DNA from: a virus
DNA length: 64,000 bases
Direction: 5' to 3' (one strand)
Virus record (IMG/VR): IMGVR_UViG_3300033149_001159
Coordinates: 4,739-68,738 of that record
Below the pieces are notes generated by a model. It was not told where the DNA came from, searched no databases, and saw nothing but the letters and a program-made list of their open reading frames with translations. The translations under genes and the position numbers were made by a program. Shown in pieces: positions 17,034 to 63,492 of the stretch. The first letter of the stretch is position 1, and each line of letters starts with the position of its first letter.

Positions 17034-21142
<4,109 letters not shown>

Positions 21143-22873: not shown

Positions 22874-23446
22874 GTGACTTGGCAACAGGCCCAGGAATGG
22901 GAAGGCGAGTGGTGGGGCTTCTGCACCAACACCTATGGCGAAGAAGAGAAGCAGCTAGTCTACGCCCGCAAGATGGGGCTAAGATTCTTTCATGACAGCA
23001 AGTCGCCATACAACATAGACATGAAAGGACTCTCTGTTCTGGACATCGGCGGGGGCCCGTGCTCGCTACTGCTCAAATGTCACAACGTTAAGGGCAAGGT
23101 GGTTGACCCGCTAGAGTTTCCGGCATGGGTCGCTGCTAGATATGCGGTGGCGGGAATTGAGTATGAACAGAGGCGAGGCGAGGATGTCCAGGAAGCGGGC
23201 TGGGACGAGTGCTGGCTCTACAATGTGCTCCAGCACACCGCGGACCCAGAGTTGATAGTCAAGAACGCGAAGAGAGCAGGGCAGATCGTAAGGGTCTTTG
23301 AATGGATAGACATACCGACCAACGTCGGCCATCCGCACAGTCTGTCCGAACAATTGCTCAACGAATGGTTGGGTGGGGAGGGTAGAGTGGAGCAGTTAAC
23401 GGGAGGAACTTGCAGGGGGTTAGCCTACTATGGGGTGTTCCTGTGA
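22874..23446 (+). CDS. class I SAM-dependent methyltransferase
   Basis: VLDIGGGP, NVLQH motifs. Confidence 0.8.
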   Translation: MTWQQAQEWEGEWWGFCTNTYGEEEKQLVYARKMGLRFFHDSKSPYNIDMKGLSVLDIGGGPCSLLLKCHNVKGKVVDPLEFPAWVAARYAVAGIEYEQRRGEDVQEAGWDECWLYNVLQHTADPELIVKNAKRAGQIVRVFEWIDIPTNVGHPHSLSEQLLNEWLGGEGRVEQLTGGTCRGLAYYGVFL

Positions 23447-38169: not shown

Positions 38170-39744
38170 CTATAGTAATGTCGGTTGCTGCGTCCAGTAC
38201 GCTATCCGCGCTCTTGCTATCTCACAAGCGTGTTCGCTCATGTCTATCGCGAGCCAGTTGCGCCAACCTGCAAGTATGGCACCAAGCGCTTCTGAGCCGG
38301 TACCCGAAAATGGGATCAGGATCGCGGCCTTGTCTCTGTACTCTTCTGGAACCAGGAGTAGCCTGGCCAGATATTCTGTAATTTTCAGTGGCTTTACCGT
38401 AGGCCAGTCATTGCGGATGCACTTGCCTTCCTTGCCGTTTATGGTGTGCTTTGTGGTATCCACACCACCGCACTTGACGCACGGCAGGACGCCGAGCAAG
38501 CCCTTCTCGCGCTCGCTCCGAGATGCCTTGGCGGTGTAAAAGAAGCGGGAGGCTGTGCCCTTGTCGCCGTAATTGTCTGGGGCATTGCTTGTTCCAGAAT
38601 GCAACTTTGTGCTAAGAAGGCCCACGCCAGCCTTGCCTTGGCGGGCAGATGCATGGCGATAGGTGCCACTCTTGCGTTCCCCCGCCTGCTCATCCAGCAT
38701 CTTGACGGCACACCCATCCTGGCAGATAAAGTCAGCCACCTCCTCTGTGCCGTCGGGGGAGGTGTAGCCTTGGGTGACGAAGCCTATTGGTCGGCCACCC
38801 TCTATGCCTAGCCCGCCAGTCTGTGACTTGGTGCTATCGCCCGTATGTTCCACGCGGGGCCGTGTGCCCTTCACCTTCCGCGTACCAACCTGTTGGCACC
38901 TAGGGGAATGGGAGAAAAGTACGTTACTTGGATACCTCCCGCGATTCTCTGTGCGATACTGTCCATCCCATGCCTGAAACTTCCCGTAGGCTACAGTGTC
39001 TACAGGGCCACCATTAGGATTGCTTCGACCTGTCTTGACACTTCGTTGTTCCGTCCCTATCCTGCACCCATCCACGTTGATCGCCCCGCTACCATGCTCT
39101 GTGATAGCGTCTATCCGTGACTTGCCATAGGGAGCGTTCATCAAAAGGATGGGCTCCGCCGCTGGCTTCAAGCTCTGGCGGCCATACTTCCAGCCGTCCC
39201 ACGTTTGGGCTAAGGGTGTGGCGGGGGCGGTGACGTTCGGCGTCGTGCGCCCGTTGCCCTTCGTGTTCCAACCATAGCGCCCCGTTCCGCTATCTGTACA
39301 TGGCGCTGGATGTTTACCCACCACTTCCCGCTCTGCGCCTGCTCGTTTGTCAATCTGCTTACTCACGTCTGTACTTTTTGGAAATCCGCTGGAGTACATC
39401 CAATAGAGGCAGGAGTTGTCCTCAAACCCCGCCAGCCTCATGCTGACGCCCATCAAGTCTTGTGTCCTGCACCCTGAGAACGCCATGATGAACGCGCCTG
39501 GGCTGAGAACGCGCAACACTTCGCGCCACGTTTCGGGGCTGGGTACAGCATCCCAGTCGCGCCCCATAAACCCAGACGTCTGTAAGTGCTCGCCGTCCGT
39601 CCCGTCCAGCCAATGCCTAAGCAGGCCGTGTATGTCCTTTACCGTACCAAGGCCGTATGGCGGATCTGTCAAGACCGCCTGGAACGTTCCTGGCGGGTAG
39701 TCTTTCAACACGTCTTCAACTTTGCCACAGATGACTTTGTTCAT
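38170..39744 (-). CDS. DNA methyltransferase (N6-A/N4-C class)
   Basis: LTDPPYG, W.YSSGFPKS, LKPAAEPI, RFFYTAKAS, PTVKP, PFSGTGS. Confidence 0.92.
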   Translation of the reverse strand: MNKVICGKVEDVLKDYPPGTFQAVLTDPPYGLGTVKDIHGLLRHWLDGTDGEHLQTSGFMGRDWDAVPSPETWREVLRVLSPGAFIMAFSGCRTQDLMGVSMRLAGFEDNSCLYWMYSSGFPKSTDVSKQIDKRAGAEREVVGKHPAPCTDSGTGRYGWNTKGNGRTTPNVTAPATPLAQTWDGWKYGRQSLKPAAEPILLMNAPYGKSRIDAITEHGSGAINVDGCRIGTEQRSVKTGRSNPNGGPVDTVAYGKFQAWDGQYRTENRGRYPSNVLFSHSPRCQQVGTRKVKGTRPRVEHTGDSTKSQTGGLGIEGGRPIGFVTQGYTSPDGTEEVADFICQDGCAVKMLDEQAGERKSGTYRHASARQGKAGVGLLSTKLHSGTSNAPDNYGDKGTASRFFYTAKASRSEREKGLLGVLPCVKCGGVDTTKHTINGKEGKCIRNDWPTVKPLKITEYLARLLLVPEEYRDKAAILIPFSGTGSEALGAILAGWRNWLAIDMSEHACEIARARIAYWTQQPTLL

Positions 39745-39778
39745 ATTCCCCCTGTGCTCATTTGGGTGCAATGGGGTG

Positions 39779-49327: not shown

Positions 49328-49356
49328 TTGACAAGTGGCTTGTTCTTTGCTATACT
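49328..49356 (+). promoter_or_regulatory. rightward promoter
   Basis: TTGACA-N17-TATACT with extended -10 TG. Confidence 0.75.
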
Positions 49357-49543
49357 GTGGGTCAATTGGGGAGTGCGAATGACTGAGACGGAGTATGAAG
49401 AGTTGGTGGCCCTTCTCTGCCAGTTACTGGTGTTGGCGGGCGTGCCTGACTTGGTTGCTGCGAAGACTTTTGCCGATTACGTCTATGTCTTACCGGCTTC
49501 TTCGTAGGTTGTTGTTGTAGGGGCTTGACACTGTAATTGAATC

Positions 49544-49572
49544 TTGACAAATTGGTCTGTGCCTGCTATACT
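49544..49572 (+). promoter_or_regulatory. rightward promoter
   Basis: TTGACA-N17-TATACT with extended -10 TG. Confidence 0.75.
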
Positions 49573-51943: not shown

Positions 51944-52532
51944 CACCCTGGGCTACACCAAGTTCCCCACAGCACCCGACACTGACGACCCCACTATCAA
52001 GCCGTTCCGCCAGGAAGTGTTCAACAAGCTTGTAACTGGCTGGAGCCCGTCGCGGATCTCTGCCATCATGGAAAGTTACTACCACGTTGTGATCACAGAG
52101 CCTGACATTCTCGAATACGCCAAGCTCATCCCGCCAGAAGTCAAGATACGGGTTCCCTACCTACACCGACTACTGCATCTGTTGGACATTGAAGTAGACC
52201 CAATGGGGGAGATGCAGCGGCTAATGAAGTTCATGGCAATTCGCCTAGACGAAGCACTACAGGCAGAAGAAGACATCCAAGGCGGAAGTCCCGCAAACAA
52301 GAAAAAGGCCGCCGACAAAGTAATTCAGCGGGCCAAAGACTACTGGCGGTTCCTAGGCGACTACATTGAACGCATTGCTACCATGCGGGCCGCAGGCGTA
52401 TCTAGAGAAGTGGTGATCCCAGGCAAGGTTCCATCCGTAAGAGACCTACTAGAACAAACTGGCACCGATAGGATTGTAGACGTGGCAAGTAAGCTGTTGC
52501 CGGAAGGCAAGAATGGACCTAGTTCAAACTGA
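51936..52532 (+). CDS. probable terminase small subunit
   Basis: Immediately upstream of and overlapping TerL; HTH-like N-terminus. Positional. Confidence 0.5.
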   Translation: MPDTLGYTKFPTAPDTDDPTIKPFRQEVFNKLVTGWSPSRISAIMESYYHVVITEPDILEYAKLIPPEVKIRVPYLHRLLHLLDIEVDPMGEMQRLMKFMAIRLDEALQAEEDIQGGSPANKKKAADKVIQRAKDYWRFLGDYIERIATMRAAGVSREVVIPGKVPSVRDLLEQTGTDRIVDVASKLLPEGKNGPSSN

Positions 52533-54369
52533 CTACAAGCTGATAACCGAGCATCTCCTTCGGAACTACACCCGTAAAGAATTGGAAGACCAAGGCTTCT
52601 TGGATAGGCAGTTCGACAAAGAACTGCGAACCCAGCTTGCCCGCAAAGACATGGGGTTCTTTTGCCGCTTTTACTTGCACGAACACTTTAGCAAACCACC
52701 CGCCAAAGTACACTGGACCCTGTTTGCTGAAGTCAAGAAGCTCATCGAAACCCCTGGTAGGCAACACATGGTGTTGGTTTTGCCCAGGGGCTGGGCCAAG
52801 ACCACTATTGCTACACTCGCTGTTCCGTTATGGTGCGTGATGTTCAACCTGAAAAAGCACATCGGAATTGTGAGTGATAGCCAAGACCAGGCCAAAGACC
52901 AGCTTCAGACTCTAAAGAGCGAGTTAGAACACAACGAAAGACTCAGAGAAGACTTCGGCAACCTGGTTGGTAAAAACATTTGGCAAATGATGGACATCGA
53001 AACCGCTTCGCACATTAGGATTAGAGCCTTTGGAACGGGCCAGAAGATTCGTGGCAGGAAGCACGGCAAAGACCGCTTTGACCTACTGCTACTAGACGAC
53101 CTTGAAAACCTAAAAGCAGTTAATAGCCAGGCAGCCCGCGAGGCCCTTCACCGTTTTGTCTACGGCTCTGTAATGAAGGCGGGCTGGACAGACACTACAA
53201 TAATCGCGATGGGCAACTTCTTGCATTGGGACTGCTTGCTGATGAACATGGTCAAGAACCCAATGTTCAAGAGTATTGTGTTCAAGGCCATGGTTTCATG
53301 GCCCGACAACATGGACATGTGGGACCACTGGCGCGACTTGATTACTAACCTGGATGACCCACAAAAAAACGAGACCGCCAAAGCCTACTTTGAAGCCCAC
53401 AAAGAAGAAATGCTCCAGGGCGCAGAAAGCTCGTGGCCCGACGCGTTTTCAGTCTACGACCTTATGATGATGCGGGTTTCTGACGGGGAAGCGTCTTTTG
53501 CCATGGAGCTCCAGAATGAACCCATAGACCCAACACGAAGATTCTTCAAGTCCTGGGGGATCTACCGCAGGGCCCGCAAGCTTGAAGATACCTGGCTAGT
53601 ACCCGCCGCCAACCAACCAGCAGTCAGACTTAAAGACTGTGCCATCTTTGCGTTCACCGACCCGTCTTTGGGGAAAACTGCACGGGCGGACTATTCGGCG
53701 ATTATAATTCTGGCAAAGGCTCCTACAAGGCAACAGTTTGTGCTAGAAGCGGACATCAAGCGCAGGCCGCTAGACCAGCTTATCAAAGATCAGATCAAGT
53801 ACGCGAAAAAATATAAGATTACTAGGTGGGGGATTGAGTCCAACGCGTTCCAGGCTCTCTTTACAACCGATAGCGCCAGGGCGAGCATGCAATCTGGAGT
53901 CTACATGCCCATCGCACCAGTAAACCAGATAGCCAACAAGACCGCGCGAATCCAGACATTGCAACCTGACTTGGAAAATAGGTACATTCTCTTACCAGAG
54001 AATGGGGCCAAGCTGCTCAAGCAACAGCTAGAACGGTGGAAGCCCAGCTCTACTGGCAACGACGACGGCCCTGACGCTCTGGAGGGCGCGCGGAACCTGG
54101 CGCGAGAATGGGAACCATTGGATGTAGTTGAGATAGTCCAGGGCGACATACACCAGTTCAATAAGCACGAACACGACAGGGGTACGGAACAATACGATCC
54201 CTGGGATGAAGCTGACAAATTGGCAGATGAAAGAATCAGGGAGTATAGACTAGCCCAGAGAGATGCCATAATGAACGAATTGGAGGGCGAGGAGCGAGAG
54301 GCCGCGCTAGCCAAGTTACCAGTCCTGGAAGAAAAGCCAGAGGTGTTTGTCCCCAAGATGGTTTACTAA
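52513..54369 (+). CDS. terL: terminase large subunit
   Basis: PRGWAKTT (Walker A), LLLLDDLE (Walker B), FTDPS and DDGPDA nuclease motifs. Confidence 0.93.
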   Translation: MDLVQTDYKLITEHLLRNYTRKELEDQGFLDRQFDKELRTQLARKDMGFFCRFYLHEHFSKPPAKVHWTLFAEVKKLIETPGRQHMVLVLPRGWAKTTIATLAVPLWCVMFNLKKHIGIVSDSQDQAKDQLQTLKSELEHNERLREDFGNLVGKNIWQMMDIETASHIRIRAFGTGQKIRGRKHGKDRFDLLLLDDLENLKAVNSQAAREALHRFVYGSVMKAGWTDTTIIAMGNFLHWDCLLMNMVKNPMFKSIVFKAMVSWPDNMDMWDHWRDLITNLDDPQKNETAKAYFEAHKEEMLQGAESSWPDAFSVYDLMMMRVSDGEASFAMELQNEPIDPTRRFFKSWGIYRRARKLEDTWLVPAANQPAVRLKDCAIFAFTDPSLGKTARADYSAIIILAKAPTRQQFVLEADIKRRPLDQLIKDQIKYAKKYKITRWGIESNAFQALFTTDSARASMQSGVYMPIAPVNQIANKTARIQTLQPDLENRYILLPENGAKLLKQQLERWKPSSTGNDDGPDALEGARNLAREWEPLDVVEIVQGDIHQFNKHEHDRGTEQYDPWDEADKLADERIREYRLAQRDAIMNELEGEEREAALAKLPVLEEKPEVFVPKMVY

Positions 54370-54501
54370 GACTATGAAATGTGGAATCAGAGGCCTACTC
54401 ACGATCCTGGCCAGGTTGTGGCTCGAAAACGCAGAGCTGAAAGCCTTAGTGGCTGCCTACGAAATCGAGATTGAAGAACTCTATGATGAGCTGGAGGGTT
54501 G

Positions 54502-55329
54502 ATGCAACCGACTGTTGACATTGTGGTGGCTGTGTATAATGCAAGGCCGTTCGTTCTCAGGTGCTTTCAGTCGGTGAGGGCTGAAACAAAGTACCCGCAT
54601 AACATCTACTTTGCAGACGACGCCAGTACCGACACAACGCTAGTAAAAGCTATGCGAGATTGGGATAGCCAAGGGCTGGCTACCCTGTTGCGATCTGAGC
54701 GGAACCTTGGGTTCGCCGGAATCAACAACTGGGCGGTCAGGCAGACCAAGAGTGACTTCTTCTGCCTGCTGAACTCTGATACTGTAGCCCTACGGGGGTG
54801 GTTGGGGGCAATGATGGAAGTTATGCTTTCCAATGACCGCATAGGAATTGTGGGGGCAAAGCTATTGTTCCCCACGGGCAAGCAAGAAAGCGCTGGAACG
54901 ATACAACACGCTGGGGTTGGTAGAGACAGGACGGGGCAGCCCTACCATCCATACAGAGAAAGGCCAGCAGACTTTATTCCTGCGAACGTGTTGCGGGAAG
55001 TGAACGCCGTTACTGGGGCCTGTATGCTGGTCCGCCGAAAGTGCTGGGACGAGCTAAAAGGCTTCGACGAACGCTACTCAATGGGGCAGTTTGAGGATGT
55101 AGACTTCAACTGGAGGGCTAGAATGGTGGGTTGGAAGATCTACATGCAGCCAAAGGCGGTTCTGTACCACTACGAACACGGTTCTGGGGAGGAGTTCGTG
55201 GTGCGGAGCCACGACAAGAACAAAGACATCTTGTTGAGAACCTGGCGGGGAATTGCGTCAGACGAACACCTGTTTCCAGACGGCAAGAGATACGACTACT
55301 ACCCAAATAGTTACCAGAGGGGAAAGTAA
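54502..55329 (+). CDS. GT2-family glycosyltransferase
   Basis: IVVAVYN, DDASTD, NLGFA..NN, LLNSD, VTGACML, FEDVD. Confidence 0.92.
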   Translation: MQPTVDIVVAVYNARPFVLRCFQSVRAETKYPHNIYFADDASTDTTLVKAMRDWDSQGLATLLRSERNLGFAGINNWAVRQTKSDFFCLLNSDTVALRGWLGAMMEVMLSNDRIGIVGAKLLFPTGKQESAGTIQHAGVGRDRTGQPYHPYRERPADFIPANVLREVNAVTGACMLVRRKCWDELKGFDERYSMGQFEDVDFNWRARMVGWKIYMQPKAVLYHYEHGSGEEFVVRSHDKNKDILLRTWRGIASDEHLFPDGKRYDYYPNSYQRGK

Positions 55330-55871
55330 TGTTCAAGTCATGTGGCGAACCATTCACTATGTTCCCGCTTACCAAGATCATCAACACAGAAGTTATTGAG
55401 ATAGGCCACCACTGTCAGATAGATGACTTTGTGTTCATCGATGGCGGCGAGTCTACAACCATTGGGGACTACGTTCACATAGCGACGTTTGCTTCCATAA
55501 CAGGAGGCGGTGTACTCAAGCTTGGTAGCTTCACCACGCTTTCTAGTGGGTGTAGAGTCTTTACTGGAACAGATGACTTTTCAGGTAAAACGCTCTGTGG
55601 CGCGCCCATCCCCGCGCCGTTCAGAGAACCCATACGTAGTGTAGTAAGAATTGGCAAGCACGCACTGGTAGGGGCTAACGCTGTAGTGTTACCTGGAGCA
55701 GTTATCGGGAACGGGACTGTTATCGCAGCGGGGGCTGTGGTTCTCCAGGGGCAACACTGTACTCCGTGGTTGGTCTACGCGGGGGTTCCCGCAGTGGTTG
55801 TGGGCCGTAGACCAAGGTCAAAGATGGAAGAACTGGAAAAGAAGCTAATGAAGGGGGTCCTATGTTTTTGA
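55329..55871 (+). CDS. hexapeptide-repeat (left-handed beta-helix) acetyltransferase
   Basis: IGHHCQI, IGDYVHI, IGKHALVG repeats; YAGVPA. Confidence 0.9.
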   Translation: MFKSCGEPFTMFPLTKIINTEVIEIGHHCQIDDFVFIDGGESTTIGDYVHIATFASITGGGVLKLGSFTTLSSGCRVFTGTDDFSGKTLCGAPIPAPFREPIRSVVRIGKHALVGANAVVLPGAVIGNGTVIAAGAVVLQGQHCTPWLVYAGVPAVVVGRRPRSKMEELEKKLMKGVLCF

Positions 55872-56725
55872 GCGTAGTTATACCCGTTTACAATCGTAGA
55901 AATGGACTTCGGCTCTGCCTAGCAGCTTTAGACAAGCAGTCTGTCAAGGATTTCGAGGTAGTTGTGGCTGACGACGGAAGTGACGATGACCCGTTTGGGG
56001 TTCTGGGAGAGTACAATCGGGCTTTGAGCTTGCGTTATGCTTGGCACCAGCGGCGGGGCACAAGAATTGCCCTGACTCGCAATGAAGGGGCTGCAATTGC
56101 CCAGGGTGATGCGTATCTTTTCCTAGACTCCGATGTGCTACTAAACCCTACAGCTATCGGGCATTACATGAACATTCACAAAGCTAACCCCGATGTTATC
56201 GTAGCAGGAAGGTATGACTGGCTACCACCACAAATCGCGGCGGTGTACCAGGTCCACTACGATTGGGAGAAGCTGATCGCGGGTGACCTTCCCAGGCTAG
56301 AGACACTGGAAGACGAAGCCCTGGGTTTTCAGGGGGCTGACCCACGTGCGGTAAACCCAGAATTGTTCAACAGTTCGGTGATTCACACAGACGGGTACTG
56401 CCTATCACTCTTCAGTGGCAATTTGTTGGTCCCCAAGAGAATCTTCCACGAGCTCGGTAGGTGGGACCAGAACATGATTGGTCACGGCGGAGAAGACGCG
56501 GAGTTCGGCATGCGGGTGCAAAGGGTGCATTTGCCAGTTATCTTCTCAGAAGACGTGGTTGGCTATCATGTTTGGCACGAACGCAACCAATACCTAAACG
56601 AAAAGGAGCTGAGAATCAATTGTAGCTACATTGCCCAGAAGCATGACCTGGCCAGTTTGGGCATAAGGCATGGAAAGGAGTTCGAGCCCGCCCTGGTATA
56701 CCGTGAAGGGGTGGACCATGTTTAA
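55862..56725 (+). CDS. GT2-family glycosyltransferase
   Basis: SVVIPVYNR, DDGSDD, FLDSD, GGEDAEF, GYHVWH. Confidence 0.92.
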   Translation: MFLSVVIPVYNRRNGLRLCLAALDKQSVKDFEVVVADDGSDDDPFGVLGEYNRALSLRYAWHQRRGTRIALTRNEGAAIAQGDAYLFLDSDVLLNPTAIGHYMNIHKANPDVIVAGRYDWLPPQIAAVYQVHYDWEKLIAGDLPRLETLEDEALGFQGADPRAVNPELFNSSVIHTDGYCLSLFSGNLLVPKRIFHELGRWDQNMIGHGGEDAEFGMRVQRVHLPVIFSEDVVGYHVWHERNQYLNEKELRINCSYIAQKHDLASLGIRHGKEFEPALVYREGVDHV

Positions 56726-57413
56726 GCCCACATGGGAATCTGGCGACGTTCAACTGTACCTTGGGGATTGCCTTCAGGTGATGCAGGAGTTAGGCGCCGA
56801 TAGCGTGGACGCGGTGATTACCGACCCGCCGTATGGGATAGGATTTGGCTATGAATCATCGTACATAGACACGCCCAAAACGTATGGCAACTGGATATGG
56901 GAATGCATGAGACTGGCTGAGTCAAAGTGTAGCCCAGGTTCACCCATCTTCATTTGGCAGGCGATGCTGAATATTCGGTATCTCCACCAATGGTTTCCAA
57001 GAGAGTGGCGACTTTTTGCTGCGTGCAAGAACTTTGTGCAAATACGAAAGATTGCCATGCAGTATGCTTTCGATCCAGTCGTTGTATGGTGGACGCCTGG
57101 CGAGGTGTGGTCAGATGCTAGTGCTAACCGCGATTGGCACATTGGCAATACAGCCAATACGCTGAACCGGAAGGCGGGCGACGCTCTGGGACACCCATGT
57201 GCAAGGCCGCTGAACCAAATCAAACACATCGTGGCGCAATGGGCGCGGCCCGGCAGCGTTGTGTTGGATTGTTTCATGGGCAGCGGCACAACGGGCGTGG
57301 CGTGTGTCAAAACAGGCCGCAAGTTCATCGGTATAGAGATTGAGCCAAAGTATTTCGACATTAGCGTAAAGCGCATCTCGGAAGCACAACAGCAAATAAG
57401 GCTAGGAATCTAA
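56718..57413 (+). CDS. DNA methyltransferase (N6-A/N4-C class)
   Basis: ITDPPYG, HPCARP, LDCFMGSGTT. Confidence 0.9.
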   Translation: MFKPTWESGDVQLYLGDCLQVMQELGADSVDAVITDPPYGIGFGYESSYIDTPKTYGNWIWECMRLAESKCSPGSPIFIWQAMLNIRYLHQWFPREWRLFAACKNFVQIRKIAMQYAFDPVVVWWTPGEVWSDASANRDWHIGNTANTLNRKAGDALGHPCARPLNQIKHIVAQWARPGSVVLDCFMGSGTTGVACVKTGRKFIGIEIEPKYFDISVKRISEAQQQIRLGI

Positions 57414-57422
57414 GGGGGGGCA

Positions 57423-58160
57423 ATGTTTCTGAGTTTTGTTATTCCGACATACGAACGAGTAGCCAACCTGCGCAGGGTGCTCAGTTCGCTGATTTTCCAA
57501 ACAGACCGCGATTTCGAGGTCATCGTGAGCGACGATGGCAGCACAGATGGCACCGCTGCAATGGTTCGCCAGCAGGCCGAAAGGCTGCCTATCAAGTATT
57601 TCTGGCACAAGCACCAAGGGTATAGGTTAGCTATGGTGCGCAATAGGGGTGCAGCGCTACGCGACAAGAAGACGACGCACGTATGGTTTCTTGACTCTGA
57701 TGTCGTGCTTCCCAAGGATGCCGTTGCCCAGGCCAAGAACATCTACGCGAAACACCCTGACGTAGTGCTAGCAGGCAAATACGACTGGATGCACGAACAC
57801 CCGTGGCCCGTAGAGTGTGGACCGAACTACTGGGAAGAGTTCTCCAAACTACCATTCAGGCCTGACCACCGGAAACAGGCGTTTGACAACGAGACAATTC
57901 ATACCTTCTATGAAGGGGGTGTCATCGGGGCCAATATCTTGTGCCCTGTAAAATGGTTGCTGAAAAGGGGCTTTGACGAGAACATTATCGGCGGCGGGGA
58001 AGATGGCGAATTCTCCTATCATTTGCAGGAACAAGGTGCGCCAGTCATCTTTTCTTCGGCGACACGGGGGCTGCACATGTGGCACCCGCGAGACCCCGCA
58101 GGGGACAACTCGATGGCACTACACATCATAAGGACACGCTACTTGGGAATGGATGAATGA
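57423..58160 (+). CDS. GT2-family glycosyltransferase
   Basis: VIPTYER, DDGSTD, FLDSD, GGEDGEF, HMWH. Confidence 0.92.
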   Translation: MFLSFVIPTYERVANLRRVLSSLIFQTDRDFEVIVSDDGSTDGTAAMVRQQAERLPIKYFWHKHQGYRLAMVRNRGAALRDKKTTHVWFLDSDVVLPKDAVAQAKNIYAKHPDVVLAGKYDWMHEHPWPVECGPNYWEEFSKLPFRPDHRKQAFDNETIHTFYEGGVIGANILCPVKWLLKRGFDENIIGGGEDGEFSYHLQEQGAPVIFSSATRGLHMWHPRDPAGDNSMALHIIRTRYLGMDE

Positions 58161-59017
58161 GCCACATCTGCGTAGTTATGGCTGTACACAACCGATTCCA
58201 GAATGTGAATATGGCGTTGTTCTCATGGGCACTTCAGTTCCGCGACGACTTCAGTGTTGTGGTGGCCGACGATGGTAGTACAGATGATATTGCGGCGCTA
58301 GTAGAATACTACGAGCGTTATCTCAACATCTGCCACGCTCGACGAGAAGAAGGTGGAAACGTGGCGGCCAATCTCAACCAGGGTACTAAGTGTGCGCCAC
58401 CCGAAACCACGCACATTTGGTATACGGATGGAGACATAATCCGCAAGAGTGATGCGATGGGCTGGGCATACAAGCACATAGAAGAATACCCTAACAGAAC
58501 GATTATAGGTAGATACGACTGGCTACCGCCAATGGAGATTGTGGCAGACAACCTTCGGTGGGAATGGGAGAAGATCATAGCCTGTGAGCTACCTAGACTG
58601 GACGTTCCAGAGAAAGACCAAGCCTACAGAGAAGACCACCGACTGACCAATGACCCAGAAGCGTTTGAGCACAAGCTGGCGAACCATTCAGGCCATATCC
58701 TGGGAGCAAACTTTATCATACCTATCCAGGCATTCTACGATACAGGTGGGTGGGATGAGTGGATTCCAGGCGGAAATGCCAACGATTCGGACATGGGCTG
58801 GATGCTCACACAGGCGGGTTACGGGTCGTTCTCGTCTCCACATCTGACGGGGTACCACATGTGGCATCCGAGAGACAGCAAGGCCCTAGCAGAGAACGCG
58901 GGGATAGCCCTAGTCTACATTTTTCGTAAACGCGGTCAGGAAGTGCCCGACTACTACAAGCCGTACATAGAGAAAGAGAAGCAGTGGAGGAAGGAACATG
59001 GCTGGCCAGAAGTCTGA
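58157..59017 (+). CDS. GT2-family glycosyltransferase
   Basis: DDGSTD, TDGD, GRYDWLPP, GGWDE, GYHMWH. Confidence 0.9.
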   Translation: MSHICVVMAVHNRFQNVNMALFSWALQFRDDFSVVVADDGSTDDIAALVEYYERYLNICHARREEGGNVAANLNQGTKCAPPETTHIWYTDGDIIRKSDAMGWAYKHIEEYPNRTIIGRYDWLPPMEIVADNLRWEWEKIIACELPRLDVPEKDQAYREDHRLTNDPEAFEHKLANHSGHILGANFIIPIQAFYDTGGWDEWIPGGNANDSDMGWMLTQAGYGSFSSPHLTGYHMWHPRDSKALAENAGIALVYIFRKRGQEVPDYYKPYIEKEKQWRKEHGWPEV

Positions 59018-59177
59018 GAAAGAAGTCGTAAAGCGCGTGAAATGCGAGGTCTACTCCAGAATCGTAGGTTTCTTAAGGCCGCTTGATAGCTGGAACCCAG
59101 GGAAACTCGCTGAATGGGAAGACCGCGTAGATTACAAGATGCCGAAGGGGGATGAGCTTGCCGACAGCAGTCTATGA
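58998..59177 (+). CDS. stand-alone NrdD C-terminal glycyl-radical domain (59 aa, not in ORF track)
   Basis: Hand translation MAGQKSEKEVVKRVKCEVYSRIVGFLRPLDSWNPGKLAEWEDR...; matches the class III RNR C-terminus YSRxVG(Y/F)LRP..WN.GK..E..DR. Confidence 0.8.
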   Translation: MAGQKSEKEVVKRVKCEVYSRIVGFLRPLDSWNPGKLAEWEDRVDYKMPKGDELADSSL

Positions 59178-60150
59178 TGGGGTCGAGATTGAGGTTTCAG
59201 AGCCTGTACTCTGGCCCGTGGAACGTATAAACTTCAGAATGCACCCGTGCACGGACTTCTCTGGAGTGGAGAAGTACAAGAACGGGGAACTAGAATGGAA
59301 ACCCATTATTGTGTGCCGCCGCTGTTTCGTAGTCCTAGATGGGTGGCACCGCCTAGCCGCCGCATGGCAAATGGGCAAGCGATACATAGAAGTCCAATTC
59401 ACAGACTTCCACCTTAACGGGGCGTCGGGCAGGTGCTACTGTGATCAAGTTAATTGGATAGACACTCTCCGGCCCTGGGTAGACATGGACTGCGTTTCGG
59501 GTTCCTATCACCGCAAAGACTTCAAAGTAGTCTGCTTCGCCAACTGCGTGAACCAACTCAGGCGAGCTGGGCCGCCGATGCCAATCTGTAGGGACTGGGA
59601 GCAAGCGAAAGCTATTCTCTCGTTAGGGGTAGTCCAGAACCGCAAGATACTGGACGTCGGAAGTAGGGAAAGTATCGTACCCGCATACCTGGCCGATAAG
59701 GGGGCGGAAGTTACAGCTATCGACCTGAACACGGACATGATTAAACCCCATAAAGGTGTGACCATTATGGAAGCTGACGCCAGGGAGCTGCCCTTTGAAG
59801 ACAACTACTTTGACCACGTGGTTTCTACTGCGTGCATCAAGCACATACCCGAAGACACAAAAGCTGTCACCGAGATGGTCAGGGTAGTGAAGCCGCATGG
59901 GTTAGTAGCTCTATCCTTTGACTTCGGGCAAGAATATGCGGAGTTTCCGAGCGAAGCGACTGGTAGGCGTATCTACGATGCAGACTCTGTGTATGCGCGG
60001 TTGCATGTACCGCACGCGGTAATCCAAGAACCAGCAGACTTTGGGAGATGTGATTGGGCCGATTGGCCAGTGGAGAGCCAAGCACCAAGCGTATACGCGA
60101 AGGGCGTAAACGTGCAGGTAGCGTTTCTACTGTTGAGGAAGGTGCCATGA
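59152..60150 (+). CDS. ParB/Srx-like domain fused to class I SAM methyltransferase
   Basis: PIIV..VLDGWHRLAAA; ILDVGS..AIDL..ADARELPF..RVVKP.G. Confidence 0.8.
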   Translation: MSLPTAVYDGVEIEVSEPVLWPVERINFRMHPCTDFSGVEKYKNGELEWKPIIVCRRCFVVLDGWHRLAAAWQMGKRYIEVQFTDFHLNGASGRCYCDQVNWIDTLRPWVDMDCVSGSYHRKDFKVVCFANCVNQLRRAGPPMPICRDWEQAKAILSLGVVQNRKILDVGSRESIVPAYLADKGAEVTAIDLNTDMIKPHKGVTIMEADARELPFEDNYFDHVVSTACIKHIPEDTKAVTEMVRVVKPHGLVALSFDFGQEYAEFPSEATGRRIYDADSVYARLHVPHAVIQEPADFGRCDWADWPVESQAPSVYAKGVNVQVAFLLLRKVP

Positions 60151-60470
60151 TGGAGAAGCTATACAGGATGTGTCCCGACTGTAACGGCTCTGGCTTTCAG
60201 CCACCGCCGCTGAGCGAAACCTTTATGTGTTTCAGGTACTCATGCTCTACGTGCAAGGGCCAGGGGTTCGTCGAGGCCGCGGATGCTGAACGCGACCACG
60301 CCATTGGGCAAGCTGTGCGTAAATACCTGGAATCTTGGACACGCCCCACAAACTGGATGCTATCGGACCTGGTGCGTAAAATAGCCCTAGAATTGCACAA
60401 GTGCGGCTTTCATGCATCGGCAACGCTAGAAGAAACAATTGCCAGAATATTGAAGGAATATGAAGCATGA
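60147..60470 (+). CDS. DnaJ-type Zn-finger protein, paralog of 32138-32482
   Basis: MEKLYRMCPDCNGSG..CSTCKGQG..AERDHAIGQAVRK. Confidence 0.65.
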   Translation: MMEKLYRMCPDCNGSGFQPPPLSETFMCFRYSCSTCKGQGFVEAADAERDHAIGQAVRKYLESWTRPTNWMLSDLVRKIALELHKCGFHASATLEETIARILKEYEA

Positions 60471-61519
60471 AACTTGCCTGGGTCTATGATAAAGGTCGTC
60501 CCAAGAACTGGGCCAACAGAGCCTTTGAAGGTGCAGCGCTAGGCGGCTCCGAGGCAAGCATGCTGCACTACGCCAGAGAGTTTGTGCGGCTCGGTCACAG
60601 CGTAACTATCTTCACGCCTGGTGCTAGCGCTTGTGAGCTAGACGGGGTTCAGTGGCGAGACACCAAGGACAGCATGTGCCAGCGCCGGTACGATGTAGCC
60701 ATAGCACTGCGGTTTCCAGACTCTCTGCCAGGGATGTTGGCTCCGCTAAAGGTCTTGTACTGCTGCGACCCAGAGATCCCAGAGCTACCGCAGTATGTCA
60801 AGAACGGGTTCGTGAACGTGGTTATCACCATTAGCCAGTATCAGACAGAGCTATTCCAGAAGCAACACCCGATTCCGAGAGAGATGTACCTTGTGAGCAA
60901 CGCGGGTGTGGTCTATTCCGACTACCTTAACAAGAATGTTAAGAAAGTACGCGGCAGGTGCATCTACTGTAGCGCACCGCCAAGGGGTTTGCTACCGCTC
61001 ATTCATGCGTGGCCGCTGATTCGACAGAAGGTTCCGTATGCTACGCTACACGTTACGGGCGGATTTGAGCTTTGGGGGTTGGATATTCCTATCGAGCAAC
61101 AGCCCGTGTTGCAAATGTTGCTGAAGTTGGAAGGGGCGACATACCTGGGGGTGGTATCCAGGGCAGACCTTGTAAGAGAACAGCTAGAAGCAGAAGTTAT
61201 GTTGTTGCCAGGAAGGACGGATTCGCCTGAGATGTGTTGCATCTCGTTTTCAGAATGTCAGGCAGCAAAGGTCTTTCCACTTGTAGGAGACATTGGGGCA
61301 TTGCCGGAACGGGTGCTATACGGTAACGTGGGGCTAGTTTGCTCTGTTGATGGCCTATCGGTAGAGACAGGAGCGTTCGCGGGACTGGCCGTCGGTATTT
61401 TAAGAATGCGAGACCCGCTTATGGAAGTGCGTCACGGAAGCGCGATGGCACAACAGTACGACTACTCAGTGCTGGCACCACAGTGGATTGAGAGATTCGA
61501 GAAGGAGCTAAATGGCTAA
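60467..61519 (+). CDS. GT-B (GT4-like) glycosyltransferase
   Basis: LGGSE, YCSAPPRGL, EMCCISFSECQA, GALPE. Confidence 0.88.
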   Translation: MKLAWVYDKGRPKNWANRAFEGAALGGSEASMLHYAREFVRLGHSVTIFTPGASACELDGVQWRDTKDSMCQRRYDVAIALRFPDSLPGMLAPLKVLYCCDPEIPELPQYVKNGFVNVVITISQYQTELFQKQHPIPREMYLVSNAGVVYSDYLNKNVKKVRGRCIYCSAPPRGLLPLIHAWPLIRQKVPYATLHVTGGFELWGLDIPIEQQPVLQMLLKLEGATYLGVVSRADLVREQLEAEVMLLPGRTDSPEMCCISFSECQAAKVFPLVGDIGALPERVLYGNVGLVCSVDGLSVETGAFAGLAVGILRMRDPLMEVRHGSAMAQQYDYSVLAPQWIERFEKELNG

Positions 61520-61760
61520 ATACTGGTTGTTTCAGGGAGAGGACTACTATCCAGCGGGCGGAATCTTCGATTTCAGCGGGGTCTTTGACAGCATTGCGGA
61601 TGCCCAGTTGTCACTAGCGGGCGAGTCCGACTGGGCACATATCGCTGTCCTAGAAAGTGACGATTTCAGCATTGTGGCATATTATGGTCTTCGTACCAAT
61701 TTGGGCTATGACCGGAAGAAGAAGGCCTATCAATTTGGGCCAAAGTGGGTACTCACTTAA
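61512..61760 (+). CDS. small hypothetical phage protein
   Basis: YWLF..YYPAGG..DF..DWAHI. Confidence 0.55.
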   Translation: MAKYWLFQGEDYYPAGGIFDFSGVFDSIADAQLSLAGESDWAHIAVLESDDFSIVAYYGLRTNLGYDRKKKAYQFGPKWVLT

Positions 61761-62581
61761 TGCCTGACTTCGCAAGTGTGTGTGTGTCGGCTTGGAACAG
61801 GCCAGATTTACTAGACCGTTGCCTAAAGAGCCTGTGGGCCAATACTCGATTTCCGCACGAGATCCTGGTCCACGATGACGGTAGCCAAGACGAAACGAGT
61901 AACTACTTGTACCAGTTGTCGCGCATGGGCAAGATTAGCACCTTGATTACGAACCCGCGCGGGCACAATAGGGGACACGGGACTTCCGTGAACCGAGCGG
62001 TGAACATCTCCGAAGGTAAGTACATAGTCAAGATCAACGGAGATGACAAGTTTACTCCTGGCTGGCTAGGGAAAGCGGTCAGAATGTTTGAGCTTTTCCC
62101 AGAGATAGGGTTACTGCACTTGGCCTACTATGACTTTACGGCTCTTTGGAATAGAACGAGAACGAAGCTCCCACCGAAAGACCCGAATGTAGACTATTAC
62201 ACCCTACACCGAGAAACAAGGGAAGGCGTAGAAGCCAGAGTCGTCTGGTGCGGCCCTGGCGATGCGTTTATGTGGACCAGAGACTTCTGGAACGAGGTGG
62301 GGCCGTGGCACAGTGAATACGACCTAGCATTTGGGGAAGACGTGTACTTTCGACTGAAAGCTTGCCCTATGATGCGTAGACCGTTACAGCCGCAGGGGAG
62401 TAAACTCTGCCCACCGACGCTTGAAGAATTACCAGAACACTGGGAGAAGTACAAGGATACGCCGTGGTTAGTTGCGTGTGACCCGCCGTTAGTGAGCTTT
62501 GCTTGGGGCGAAGGGCTATGCTCAATTTACGACGCGCAGAAAACATTGAAGCATGGACCAGTATTATTGGGAGGCAAATGA
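61760..62581 (+). CDS. GT2-family glycosyltransferase
   Basis: AWNRP, HDDGSQD, NGDD, FGED. Confidence 0.88.
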   Translation: MPDFASVCVSAWNRPDLLDRCLKSLWANTRFPHEILVHDDGSQDETSNYLYQLSRMGKISTLITNPRGHNRGHGTSVNRAVNISEGKYIVKINGDDKFTPGWLGKAVRMFELFPEIGLLHLAYYDFTALWNRTRTKLPPKDPNVDYYTLHRETREGVEARVVWCGPGDAFMWTRDFWNEVGPWHSEYDLAFGEDVYFRLKACPMMRRPLQPQGSKLCPPTLEELPEHWEKYKDTPWLVACDPPLVSFAWGEGLCSIYDAQKTLKHGPVLLGGK

Positions 62582-63492
62582 TGGGCTACTTCGACGAAAT
62601 GAGTGTTCTGGTAACCGGCGGCACGGGGTCGATAGGTTCAGCCATTGTAGAACGGCTGTTGACCAAGAATGTCGCATGTGTAGTTGTTCTCTCTCGCGAC
62701 GCGTCGAAGCAACAAGAACTGCACGAACGATGTGGGCGCGACGCACGTCTATACTTCAAGGTGGGCGATATTCGAGATAAGGACACCGTTGAAGAAGCAG
62801 TGTGGGGTGCGAACTTGGTCATTCACGCGGCGGCGTGCAAGCACATTCCTGCTTGTGAAGAATCGCCCAGGGAGGCGGTGACTATCAACACACTAGGCTC
62901 CCTGAACGTATTGCGGGCTTCTTTACGGGAGGGGGTACATACGTGCTTGGCTATTTCGACTGACAAAGCATGTGAGCCGACATCTGTTATGGGCATGACT
63001 AAATATCTCATGGAAAGGCTGTTCATCCAGTACGGTTGGGGGAACATGCGGACGCTGTGTGTGCGAAGCGGGAACGTTGCGGGGAGTCAAGGCTCTGTCA
63101 TTCCGTTGTGGAAGAAACAGATAGCAAGCGGGGGGCCTGTTACAATAACCGACATTGGCATGAAACGGTTCTTCATAACAGTGGACAAGCTGGTAGACTT
63201 GGTATTCACGGCTATTAAGACGGGGGTAGCGGGGGAGATCTTTGTGCCACAGATGCCTGAAGTGAGACTCGTAGACCTTGCGGATGTTATGCGGGCAGGA
63301 ACTGCATGTGGGGTAAGGATTACGGGCGCGCGAGTGGGCGAGAAGCTAAGAGAGACTGTTGTGTCTGAGCAAGAACTGCGAAGGACTTACGGGCGGGGCA
63401 ACTACTACGTTATTGGTAAGGAGGTGTTGCCAGAAGGGTTCGTGCTCGATAAGTGGTGGGCGACTGAAGGCGAAATGCGAGAGCTATTGTGA
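62578..63492 (+). CDS. UDP-N-acetylhexosamine 4,6-dehydratase-like SDR enzyme (CapD/CapE/PseB family)
   Basis: VTGGTGSIG, HAAACKH, ISTDKA, MGMTK, RSGNVAGSQGSVIP, R.GEKL.E. Confidence 0.9.
   Translation: MMGYFDEMSVLVTGGTGSIGSAIVERLLTKNVACVVVLSRDASKQQELHERCGRDARLYFKVGDIRDKDTVEEAVWGANLVIHAAACKHIPACEESPREAVTINTLGSLNVLRASLREGVHTCLAISTDKACEPTSVMGMTKYLMERLFIQYGWGNMRTLCVRSGNVAGSQGSVIPLWKKQIASGGPVTITDIGMKRFFITVDKLVDLVFTAIKTGVAGEIFVPQMPEVRLVDLADVMRAGTACGVRITGARVGEKLRETVVSEQELRRTYGRGNYYVIGKEVLPEGFVLDKWWATEGEMRELL

Follow-up and report, generated by a model that had tools for sequence, protein, structure and literature searches.

Genome and extent of the glycan island

The window analysed here (64,000 nucleotides) is part of the complete circular genome, 68.6 kb, of an uncultured tailed phage, a siphovirus; the record is 68,738 bp long with a 114-bp terminal repeat, and the window comprises its bases 4739–68738. 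All features below lie on the + strand and are numbered from the first base of the window. The interval between the large terminase subunit gene terL (52513–54369; phrog_38, E 3.5e-95) and the portal gene, 13,024 bp in all, is occupied entirely by an island of genes for glycan synthesis that extends beyond the window end. Its left border, terL, has as best cultured relatives Mu-like terminases of no more than 38% identity; its right border is a T4-like portal gene, the C-terminal end of which is at 1–245 and the whole ORF of which (record bases 3508–4983) matches PF07230 at 1.3e-27.

The island comprises 20 co-oriented ORFs, which encode five GT2 glycosyltransferases, a GT-B glycosyltransferase, an AntD-like N-acyltransferase, a PseB/CapE-like UDP-GlcNAc 4,6-dehydratase, a DesI-like aminotransferase, two sugar-type methyltransferases, two N6/N4 DNA methylases and small ORFs. 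The ORF map of the circularised genome, used for the region beyond base 64000, shows past the record junction the rest of the second DNA methylase, a CmcI-like methyltransferase, three small ORFs, the DegT aminotransferase, a 97-aa ORF and the portal. The initial annotation ended the locus at 63492 and missed the two DNA methylases and seven small ORFs; the inventory it did give after terL (five GT2 genes, GT-B, acetyltransferase, dehydratase and SAM methyltransferase) is real by Pfam, the GT-B call being weak there. The translational coupling it described is seen as tight packing, with 17 of the 20 junctions of the terL–portal interval overlapping or no more than 9 nt apart, and our gene calls agree that all eight glycosyltransferase genes of the genome are on the late (+) arms. 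Upstream of the late arm, at 49328–49572, the sigma-70-like promoter consensus is matched twice, by identical sites (TTGACA-17-TATACT with TG); these are consensus matches only, and overall the region has no more promoter-like sites than shuffled controls.

Glycosyltransferases of the island

The five GT2 genes match PF00535 with E values from 2.7e-13 to 8.1e-21, and the catalytic motifs are intact. The first island gene, GT2_a (54499–55329; 5.7e-20), keeps the DDxSxD motif and the final Asp of DxD, and its homologues in relatives (41–51% identity) are always directly 3′ of terL. GT2_b (55862–56725; 2.8e-19) carries a DSD motif and is 42–53% identical to its relatives, and GT2_c (57423–58160; 8.1e-21) is its paralogue, at 40% identity. 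GT2_d (58157–59017; 2.7e-13) has a DGD motif, and GT2_e (61745–62581; 1.6e-20) is the last of the five. The GT-B gene, GTB_1 (60467–61519), gives sub-threshold GT1/GT4 Pfam matches (26.1 bits, cut-off 27) and has homologues of 35–53% identity in 10 related loci, always 3′ of a homologue of X-MT11 (below).

Sugar-modifying enzymes, methylases and small ORFs

The acyltransferase (55329–55871; PF00132, 6.9e-14) is a left-handed beta-helix (hexapeptide) protein. Its best solved relatives are the 3vbi–3vbn series (E 1.3e-27, residues 3–176), of which 3vbn is given in PMC6031040 as the AntD N-acyltransferase of Bacillus cereus. The dehydratase (62503–63492, probable start 62578 or 62581; PF02719, Polysacc_synt_2, 1.9e-81) is of the PseB/CapE/FnlA type: its matches in the PDB are 2gn4 (1e-56) and CapE (1.4e-56) as against 1e-39 for the PglF-like WlaL, and it scores 255.4 bits with TIGR03589 (PseB), under that family's cut-off of 407.75. 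No homologue of it was found in 70 related loci, and it is absent from all the relatives' islands. A DegT-type aminotransferase had been predicted past base 64000 and is indeed there (PF01041, 3.6e-85), matching DesI (2po3) at 5e-101. The earlier proposal that the phage makes its own nucleotide sugar holds only in part: the aminotransferase and acyltransferase resemble enzymes of dTDP-sugars (DesI, AntD), and the single dehydratase is of the UDP-GlcNAc type.

X-MT11 (59152–60150; PF08241, 8.1e-20) is a two-domain protein, in which an N-terminal domain with an invariant LDGWHR motif precedes a class I SAM methyltransferase (Methyltransf_11, residues 167–253). Its relatives are 46–64% identical and conserve the N-terminal domain; the first ~146 residues are without assignment, and the predicted fold model is of low confidence. 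The first N6/N4 DNA methyltransferase is at 56670–57413 (probable start near 56718; PF01555, 9.9e-26; phrog_67, 2.3e-50). The second, also phrog_67, begins at 63489, and its N-terminal 170 of 271 aa fill the window to base 64000; it continues across the record junction, and the PF01555 match (4e-23) is to its C-terminal part. A small zinc-finger protein (138-aa ORF, 60054–60470, probable start 60147 or 60150), with weak matches to DnaJ_CXXCXGXG and a Q-like PHROG, lacks homologues in all 70 related loci. An 82-aa ORF (61512–61760) has no Pfam match and weakly resembles PHROGs without an assigned function.

The island in related phages

Both terL and portal are visible in 23 of the 70 related loci, and between them the island is present in nine and absent from 14; it is therefore dispensable, an accessory element. 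The type of locus is conserved while its content varies. The relatives' islands always start with GT2_a and GT2_b and are variable thereafter, with other sugar genes that include SDR epimerase/dehydratases, ATP-grasp, GNAT, full-length CmcI, RGP and Glyco_trans_1_2, and with N6/N4 DNA methylase homologues in three relatives. At 13 kb the island described here is the largest seen. Variable content of this kind would be expected if the glycan is exposed and diversifying.

The capsid-linked glycosyltransferase

The gene that lies 15 nt after the gp23-like major capsid protein (MCP) gene (2123–3307; PF07068, 2e-30; phrog_138) encodes a fusion of a GT4 glycosyltransferase and a SAM methyltransferase (3323–5185; Pfam GT1 domains and a weak Methyltransf_25 match). 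The fusion gene is directly 3′ of the capsid gene, at a spacing of 5–510 nt, in 32/32 informative loci (portal identity at least 35% and at least 1.5 kb of sequence after the MCP gene; 28 distinct sequences), and is absent from four distant loci with portal identity of 26–30%. Across 26 sequences, down to 35% identity, its motif E298-x7-E306 and residues R223 and K224 do not vary, and its AF2 model (pLDDT 90.1) has a GT4 fold with a chlorovirus glycosyltransferase as top PDB match. Source pipelines label the fusion homologues 'glycosyltransferase involved in cell wall biosynthesis'. In the MCP, neither a tail nor a loop rich in Ser/Thr goes with the presence of the island.

The collagen-like fibre and third GT-B

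The collagen-like fibre gene (18800–21142; PF01391, 1.6e-69) encodes ~159 Gly-X-Y triplets; Thr occupies the Y position in 82, mostly as GDT. After the fibre genes is the third GT-B, of the GT4 type (23410–24594; PF00534, 3.8e-21; phrog_3408, 4.4e-82), which is 42% identical to a glycosyltransferase of cyanophage S-CAM7 located between baseplate and tail-fibre genes. Both GT-Bs annotated outside the island are thus real genes, the third starting at 23410 and not at 23443. Each had been described as fused to or paired with a methyltransferase, and this holds for the fusion, with its weak Pfam match; the partner of the third, p190 (22874–23446; phrog_3603, 1.8e-58, function unknown), has neither a Pfam match nor a PDB sequence match, and its only signs of being a methyltransferase are a VLDIGGGP motif and a match by language model (atlas score 0.99 with viral clusters in which 13–32% of members carry Methyltransf_11). 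Co-occurrence of the collagen gene with the island, raised in the initial annotation, was not observed in any of three complete island-bearing relatives or five further partial records, and the third GT-B is missing from all three complete ones. The fibre therefore cannot generally be the island's acceptor, and it is a candidate acceptor in this genome only.

Probable function

The first proposal, that several enzymes of the late operon form a system for building glycans, is supported. The analysis shows the gene content, gene order, conservation pattern and intact motifs, and that machinery for membrane steps and DNA hydroxylation is absent. On balance we think it probable that this is a cytoplasmic glycosylation system, encoded by the phage and expressed with the virion genes, which decorates virion proteins; co-transcription, the sugar products given next and above all the acceptor are what we infer. 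Together, the island and the capsid-linked glycosyltransferase suggest a particle coat of variable sugars in these phages, built by a system of two layers. In the core layer, conserved across this uncultured siphovirus lineage, the retaining GT4–SAM methyltransferase fusion would attach the initial sugar, which may be methylated, to a head protein that is itself conserved, and the compositionally variable terL–portal island would supply an accessory layer. There the DesI-like aminotransferase and AntD-like acyltransferase could convert an NDP-4-keto-6-deoxyhexose to an N-acylated 4-amino-4,6-dideoxyhexose of the viosamine/anthrose type. The starting 4-keto-6-deoxy sugar, most likely dTDP-4-keto-6-deoxyglucose, is probably supplied by the host, and the PseB/CapE-like dehydratase may open a 6-deoxy-HexNAc branch from UDP-GlcNAc. 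The dehydratase and aminotransferase belong to pathways with different nucleotide carriers, so that the pathway as drawn is not closed. The two methyltransferases would O- or N-methylate the sugars, the five soluble GT2 enzymes and the GT-B would assemble the oligosaccharide directly on a soluble acceptor, and in this genome the third GT-B and its methyltransferase-like partner may serve the Thr-rich collagen fibre.

Other possible targets

The enzymes might instead act on the host envelope during infection, altering intermediates of host polysaccharide or teichoic acid, or lipid-linked ones, on its cytoplasmic side; if host carriers and flippases did the export, the outcome could be a block on superinfection, masking of receptors or easier release. 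The nearest curated families of the GT2 enzymes are exopolysaccharide and O-antigen enzymes (EpsD, HpsE/N, PglI, TuaG; all far under cut-offs), GT2_b weakly matches a PHROG named 'GtrB-like O-antigen conversion', and the pipeline names of the fusion homologues point the same way. We nevertheless consider this unlikely. In agreement with the earlier remark that no flippase or O-antigen polymerase was recognised in the window, the complete genome lacks genes for polytopic membrane proteins, its genuine genes having at most one hydrophobic segment, and six-frame searches of it gave no initiating transferase (Bac_transf), so that it does not itself encode export by a lipid-linked route. Nor does it encode a GtrA/GtrC-like partner, and all the glycosyltransferases are soluble. 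Furthermore, the genes belong to the head-assembly operon and not to an early module or one for lysogeny, there is no integrase among 20 early-arm ORFs scanned, and the best-conserved glycosyltransferase is tied to the capsid gene in every informative relative.

Somewhat less probable still is a glycan placed on the phage DNA before packaging, as an anti-restriction hypermodification, with the embedded methylases and the terminase neighbourhood belonging to the same module. Two N6/N4 DNA methylases do lie inside the island, with homologues in three relatives' islands, the LDGWHR motif of X-MT11 may be ParB/Srx-like (atlas score 0.77), and one relative's island has a gene of the RGP family, that of the UDP-arabinopyranose mutases. 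Phage DNA that carries arabinose has been described (PMC13326640), and Pyle et al. (bioRxiv 10.1101/2023.12.21.572611) report di- and trisaccharide products as well as DNA-modifying GT-A/GT-B genes that adjoin terminases, ParB-like proteins and methyltransferases. However, the routes described, as far as our sources give them, all need a hydroxylated base from a 5mYOX/TET enzyme or a thymidylate-synthase homologue, and six-frame searches of the complete genome found no Tet_JBP, Thymidylat_synt, C5 DNA_methylase or 2OG-FeII_Oxy_3 domain. Thymidylat_synt was likewise not found in five relatives, three of them complete; the absence of TET applies to this genome, the control of that search having given no signal in the relatives. 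Methylases of the N6/N4 type give no hydroxyl to accept a sugar, the core glycosyltransferase is linked to the capsid gene and not to replication genes, and eight glycosyltransferases, an N-acyl amino-sugar branch and sugar methyltransferases are more than any described DNA system has. The initial case against DNA glycosylation thus stands on the missing TET/JBP-like and other hydroxylation genes, and is tempered by the two DNA methylases in the island. Overall, the missing membrane proteins, initiating transferase and DNA-hydroxylation genes disfavour both lipid-linked surface glycans and known forms of DNA glycosylation, as judged from the encoded genes.

We regard as least probable a soluble non-structural target (a small molecule, peptide, or host or phage cytoplasmic protein, compare MftF/MftM on mycofactocin) or a free oligosaccharide, for although all the enzymes are soluble, the MCP comparison yielded no acceptor candidate, GT2_a has the mycofactocin glycosyltransferase MftF as its best curated match (89.1 bits, cut-off 280) and X-MT11 weakly matches the oligosaccharide methyltransferase MftM, these matches are far under the family cut-offs, and this reading would leave unexplained why the genes have fixed positions next to those for capsid, portal and fibre, why the island varies in an O-antigen-like way and why capsid gene and glycosyltransferase are paired across the lineage.

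Comparison with known glycosylation systems

Glycosylation of virion proteins, the reading we favour, has a precedent. In mycobacteriophages, phage-encoded glycosyltransferases modify proteins of the capsid and tail tube (Freeman 2023, as cited in PMC12619734, PMC13313380 and PMC12363180). The only cultured-phage relatives of the fusion's glycosyltransferase domain are actinobacteriophage glycosyltransferases of 23–30% identity; no match reaches 80% coverage of the query, and no mycobacteriophage is among them, so these matches do not show homology with the proven systems. The enzyme classes of the island are the same as those reported to build the fibril glycans of Mimivirus (PMC9614988) and the anthrose on the collagen-like protein BclA (PMC10050317).

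Genome and late gene arrangement

The window covers bases 4739–68738 of a record that is 68,738 bp long and has a 114-bp repeat at both ends, which indicates that the genome is complete, circular or circularly permuted, and 68,624 bp in length. The phage is a siphovirus, and its virion assembly genes encode a Mu-like large terminase (phrog_38, E 3.5e-95), a T4-like portal protein (PF07230), a gp23-like major capsid protein (MCP), an SU10-type adaptor and a 1533-aa tape-measure protein. The + strand carries the late genes, which run from about 49.8 kb across the record junction to about 26 kb; the early genes between them are on the − strand. The nearest terL match in a cultured phage is 38% identical, the locus had no megablast match among phages, and a terL peptide-pattern scan of IMG/VR found none. 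Clues to the host are likewise absent, with no tRNAs in the genome and no prophage relative, and a scan of genome contigs for the host gave only two remote MAG matches (24–27% identity); the cultured relatives are too distant to point to one. No RNA run was listed for the genome, and three DNA sequencing runs (shares 0.06–0.14) contained only scattered pieces of 35–312 nt, none of them across the junction of terL and the glycosyltransferase (GT) genes.

The tape-measure protein (8935–13536, +) has lytic transglycosylase/endolysin-like segments at its C-terminal end (residues ~1305–1453), a likeness that suggests a cell-wall-degrading tip. At the end of the late arm, a 284-aa ORF (25183–26037, +) has no Pfam or PHROG match and carries the motifs GDxH, GDWVD and GHIHH, which we take to be typical of calcineurin-like metallophosphoesterases.

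The terL–portal island

The interval between terL (52513–54369) and the portal gene is a genuine, intact glycan-building system that is conserved in kind among related phages. All of the enzymes listed for it in the initial annotation are found there by Pfam scans, namely five GT2 genes (PF00535, E 2.7e-13 to 8.1e-21), a hexapeptide acyltransferase (LbH, 55329–55871), a Polysacc_synt_2 dehydratase (E 1.9e-81), a Methyltransf_11 domain that forms the C-terminal half of a 332-aa protein (X-MT11, 59152–60150), and a GT-B gene (60467–61519) that scores below the Pfam threshold yet is conserved in relatives. Also confirmed were the collagen-like fibre (PF01391, E 1.6e-69) and two further GT-B genes, one fused to a methyltransferase behind the capsid gene and the other behind the fibre genes. 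The locus does not end at 63492, as had been proposed, since more genes follow across the record junction, and the earlier list had overlooked two PF01555 N6/N4 DNA methylases, a small zinc-finger ORF and several short ORFs. A DegT-type aminotransferase had been predicted beyond base 64000 and is indeed there (PF01041, E 3.6e-85); the order past the junction is a CmcI-like O-methyltransferase, three ORFs of 74–89 aa, the DegT aminotransferase, a 97-aa ORF and portal.

From the terL stop to the portal start the island measures 13,024 bp and holds 20 co-oriented ORFs. Neighbors overlap or are at most 9 nt apart at 17 of 20 junctions, and the remaining gaps are 129, 134 and 429 nt. Promoter-like and terminator-like sites are no more numerous than in shuffled sequences, and gene packing is thus the sole basis for the operon structure. 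Dehydratase, aminotransferase, N-acyltransferase, several GTs and methyltransferase, all five enzyme classes, are found within one co-oriented block of 13 kb. The zinc-finger protein (60054–60470, +) has a weak match (E 1.4e-7) to PHROGs with a Q-like antiterminator annotation; should that match hold, the protein might control read-through along the long late operon.

Sugar synthesis and catalytic motifs

The DegT aminotransferase aligns over its whole length (residues 2–383) with DesI (PDB 2po3; E 5e-101). DesI is also its best curated family (TIGR04427, 421.7 bits against a cut-off of 650), and PseC reaches only 160.7 bits. The best solved relatives of the LbH acyltransferase are the 3vbi–3vbn series (E 1.3e-27, nearly whole length). 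Of these, 3vbn is AntD, a CoA- and dTDP-binding N-acyltransferase with which Bacillus cereus makes D-anthrose (PMC6031040). By these similarities, the pair looks like a branch leading from an NDP-4-keto-6-deoxyhexose to an N-acylated 4-amino-4,6-dideoxyhexose.

The dehydratase is equally close (E about 1e-56) to the PDB structures of Helicobacter pylori PseB/FlaA1, Staphylococcus aureus CapE and a dehydratase/5-epimerase, and farther from the PglF-like WlaL (1e-39). It matches at the family level (PF02719, 273.9 bits) and scores under the cut-offs for both PseB (TIGR03589, 255.4 bits against 407.75) and FnlA (201.5 against 730), so it is a member of the UDP-GlcNAc dehydratase family that is not callable as PseB. 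This UDP-GlcNAc-type enzyme is the only dehydratase present, and a Pfam scan of the island ORFs found no glucose-1-phosphate nucleotidyltransferase or NDP-glucose 4,6-dehydratase. Because relatives that lack the dehydratase still keep the DegT–LbH pair, we infer that the 4-keto sugar is probably taken from the host.

Degenerate catalytic residues, raised earlier as a point that could count against the locus, were not seen in the GTs. DDxSxD is kept in every one of the five GT2 proteins, as is the final Asp of DxD; three of these proteins, GT2_b, GT2_c and GT2_d, are paralogs with 29–40% identity. The GT-B proteins retain E-x7-E. X-MT11 gave a poor fold model (mean pLDDT 51.7) whose structure matches are generic methyltransferases only. 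Its conserved N-terminal domain (residues 1–146; 59152–59600, +) has no match in Pfam, PHROG or the PDB, the atlas score on this half (0.77) being uninformative, and contains invariant C33, C55 and LDGWHR, the last possibly reminiscent of the ParB/sulfiredoxin fold.

A GT4-methyltransferase fusion linked to the capsid gene

Directly after the MCP gene (2123–3307) lies the fusion of a GT4 and a methyltransferase (core fusion, 3323–5185). In all 32 loci where portal identity is at least 35% and MCP is followed by 1.5 kb or more of sequence, the fusion gene is 5–510 nt behind the capsid gene, and it is missing in four loci with 26–30% portal identity. Alignment of 26 of its 28 distinct sequences, down to 35% identity, shows invariant R223, K224, E298 and E306, the two glutamates being the GT4 E-x7-E motif in KGEGFGMPPREA, and nearly invariant motif-I glycines in the methyltransferase. 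The AlphaFold model, a confident one (pLDDT 90.1, pTM 0.88), matches retaining GT4 enzymes, with a chlorovirus NY-2A glycosyltransferase first, followed by MshA, BshA, PglA, PimA and WaaG.

The family has about 100 full-length members in a collection of 5.8 billion proteins, after which E falls off from 1e-74 to 1e-30. A tblastn search of 50,697 phage records matched the GT domain alone, at 23–30% identity in 136 actinobacteriophage records (Streptomyces 127, Arthrobacter 6, Rhodococcus 2 and Microbacterium 1). All 136 fall short of 80% query coverage and no mycobacteriophage is among them, a negative that applies to the core fusion, the query used. The gene neighborhood of the GT in Rhodococcus phage Trina is mixed and uninformative.

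The capsid protein is the obvious guess for the acceptor of this enzyme, given the gene linkage. A complex prediction for MCP with residues 1–420 of the fusion scored 0.00 and weighs neither way; the MCP C-terminus is conserved and no Ser/Thr-rich feature of MCP tracks the island. One locus (L026:5226–8132, +) has a single 968-aa ORF in which MCP is in frame with the GT-methyltransferase from its residue 15. We set this aside as Rosetta-stone evidence, since it occurs on a single contig and the conserved last ~40 residues of MCP are gone; it could come from misassembly, from a defective genome or from a real deletion variant.

Variability of the island among relatives

Portal homologs number 124 at E ≤ 1e-5, with 36–84% identity, and several are on contigs of 65–72 kb. 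A profile scan of IMG/VR gave 70 loci, not de-replicated (47 of 57 portal rows are distinct), onto which the proteins of the studied genome were mapped by tblastn. Twenty-three of these loci show both terL and portal; nine have 4.3–8.8 kb of GT-rich DNA between the two genes, and the other 14 have only 84–579 bp. The locus is conserved in relatives as to kind, with differing contents, and the island of the studied genome is the largest seen.

The relatives' islands begin with homologs of GT2_a and GT2_b and then diverge. Some have a block of X-MT11, GT-B, LbH and DegT, and others have different SDR epimerase/dehydratases, ATP-grasp, GNAT, a full-length CmcI methyltransferase, an RGP-family protein and Glyco_trans_1_2 proteins. 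For the dehydratase, the CmcI-like methyltransferase, the zinc-finger ORF and the small ORFs of the studied genome, tblastn found no homolog in the 70 loci, a result that is weaker for the 97-aa ORF, whose query had only 72 residues. On the portal tree, island presence (28 rows) and absence (14 rows) require at least four changes, compared with 11.7 when labels are shuffled; the well-supported branches alone force one change.

The RGP-family protein, from the “reversibly glycosylated polypeptide” family (PF03214, E 8.7e-40), is encoded in one relative's island (L028:4813–5784, +). We take this family to be that of the UDP-arabinopyranose mutases, and its occurrence hints that some relatives' islands may make furanose sugars.

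The target of the glycan

We consider glycosylation of virion proteins somewhat more probable than all other readings together, the acceptor being its weak point. The proposal of a virion glycosylation system stands as regards its intact glycan-building genes and falls as regards the association expected between island and collagen-like fibre (18800–21142): collagen is absent from all three complete island-bearing relatives and from five further partial records, and one partial collagen match lies at the end of a record that is 83% complete. Whole-genome maps show the collagen fibre and the third GT-B to be specific to the studied genome.

In that genome alone, the fibre is a striking candidate acceptor by analogy with Bacillus. 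Of its roughly 159 Gly-X-Y triplets, 82 have Thr at Y, mostly as GDT. The Thr of Gly-X-Thr is the attachment site in BclA. In that protein the collagen-like region bears a dense coat of oligosaccharide capped with anthrose (PMC10050317), an O-methylated, N-acylated viosamine (PMC9614988). In relatives, a scan for Ser/Thr-rich proteins, which also flags many spurious ORFs, found a 1576-aa fibre with a TPTPT linker (G001) and an island ORF of 361 or 370 aa (G002 and G003); as candidate acceptors these are suggestive only. The 361–370-aa ORF, with 21–27% Ser plus Thr and no Pfam match, is in islands just upstream of portal (L058:7656–8768, +; G002 56481–57566) and could be an island-encoded acceptor or structural protein.

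That the enzymes instead modify the host envelope seems unlikely. Serotype-conversion and Wzx/Wzy-type loci use membrane parts (an initiating phosphoglycosyltransferase, flippase, polymerase or GtrA/GtrC), and these are lacking here. In a hydropathy scan of all ORFs of at least 50 aa, every genuine gene had at most one hydrophobic segment; the sole five-segment ORF is antisense to the collagen gene. The genome has no match to the Bac_transf initiating transferase (PF02397). We conclude that the phage encodes no lipid-linked, exported glycan.

A glycan on the phage DNA is slightly less probable again. DNA sugar-hypermodification clusters combine GT-A and GT-B enzymes related to those of LPS and teichoic acid, sometimes near terminase, ParB-like and methyltransferase genes, whereas their defining base-hydroxylating enzyme and C5 methylase are missing from the complete genome studied here. 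Published routes of DNA glycosylation start from a base that has been hydroxylated, either by a TET-like dioxygenase acting on a C5-methylated base or by a homolog of thymidylate synthase (Pyle et al., bioRxiv 10.1101/2023.12.21.572611; Lee et al., NAR 2026). When the complete genome was searched in six frames, it gave no match to PF12851 (Tet_JBP) or PF00303 (Thymidylat_synt) at E ≤ 1, nor to PF00145 (C5 DNA_methylase) or PF13640 (2OG-FeII_Oxy_3); the absence of a TET/JBP-like enzyme noted for the window extends to the whole genome. Pfam scans of 20 early-arm ORFs found only N6/N4 methylases, AAA_24, HNH and HTH proteins and unknowns. A thymidylate-synthase homolog is also absent from five relatives, three of them complete; in the TET search of relatives the control was silent.

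All four DNA methylases of the genome are of the PF01555 N6/N4 type, two in the early arm (35998–37317, −; 38170–39771, −) and two in the island (56670–57413, +; 63489 onward, +), which suggests a heavy investment in anti-restriction methylation. The 439-aa methylase has an additional class I methyltransferase-like segment at its C-terminal end.

Some other soluble target is the least probable alternative, and we give it little weight.

Significance

A more specific form of virion glycosylation, which we put forward tentatively as a rather unlikely whole, is that these phages have virion “serotypes.” The capsid-linked GT4-methyltransferase would prime a head protein, the O-antigen-like, horizontally shuffled terL–portal island would build lineage-specific, methylated N-acyl-amino-sugar oligosaccharides on the particle, and in the studied genome an anthrose-like sugar would be added to the Thr-rich collagen fibre. 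If true, the island would correspond, in a bacteriophage, to the glycogene clusters that giant viruses carry in clade-specific forms, and the phage would be the first on record to produce a rare amino sugar itself for use on its coat.

To our knowledge, phage virion glycosylation has so far been shown only in a few actinobacteriophages with one to a few GT genes each. Here the lineage consists of phages of about 65–72 kb, seen in at least 70 metagenomic loci, with a core fusion conserved like the capsid gene and an island of up to 20 genes. In the literature searched we found no description of a capsid-linked GT-methyltransferase fusion or a variable terL–portal glycan island; an earlier description is possible. 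If the glycans are on the particle, these phages may diversify their surface glycan much as bacteria do their O-antigens, with a bearing on adsorption, particle stability, evasion of recognition by host or grazer, and immune recognition in phage therapy. The soluble GT4-methyltransferase fusion, the DesI/AntD-like pair and the five soluble GT2 proteins are candidate enzymes of possible use in glyco-engineering of protein scaffolds.

Comparison with known systems

By analogy, the locus resembles actinobacteriophage virion-glycosylation genes in its logic and the Mimivirus fibril cluster in its enzyme content and lineage-specific variability, and it lacks the components that define DNA-hypermodification clusters and serotype-conversion loci. 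In mycobacteriophages (Che8 gp110, Corndog gp38 and Myrna), capsid and tail-tube proteins are reported to be modified in the cytoplasm by phage-encoded GTs, which in some cases come with methyltransferases. In contrast, the phage studied here has eight GTs and a predicted nucleotide-sugar branch, a capsid-tied GT-methyltransferase fusion and a variable terL–portal island, and its core fusion has no sequence homology by tblastn of the 50,697 phage records to the proven mycobacteriophage enzymes.

The closest cultured relative of the third GT-B (23410–24594) is gp016 of the Synechococcus cyanophage S-CAM7, which is 42% identical and likewise lies between baseplate and tail-fibre genes beside a modifying enzyme. 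That neighbor is a 2OG-Fe(II) oxygenase in S-CAM7, whereas here it is the methyltransferase-like p190 (22874–23446), which has no match within the S-CAM7 locus.

The Bacillus anthrose pathway uses a DegT-family aminotransferase and an AntD-type N-acyltransferase on dTDP-4-amino-4,6-dideoxyglucose, and O-methylated anthrose decorates the collagen-like filament BclA of the exosporium. The studied phage shares with it an AntD-like enzyme, methyltransferases and a Thr-rich collagen-like fibre; the BclA system, however, is cellular, and the phage fibre is not conserved in relatives with the same aminotransferase–acyltransferase pair.

The Mimivirus fibril cluster (R141, L136, N-L142, five GTs and R132) brings together a 4,6-dehydratase, PLP aminotransferase, N-acetyltransferase, GTs and SAM methyltransferase, and its product is methylated N-acetyl-viosamine glycans on the virion fibrils, with clusters that are clade-specific (PMC9614988). 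Mimivirus is a giant virus of amoebae with a promoter per gene, whereas the studied island has the tight packing of a bacterial-type operon and belongs to a siphovirus of 68.6 kb. The studied dehydratase, unlike that of Mimivirus, is of the UDP-GlcNAc (Polysacc_synt_2) type, and the aminotransferase is closest to DesI. With Mimivirus clade A the island shares the clustering of these enzyme classes and the lineage-specific variation of their content.
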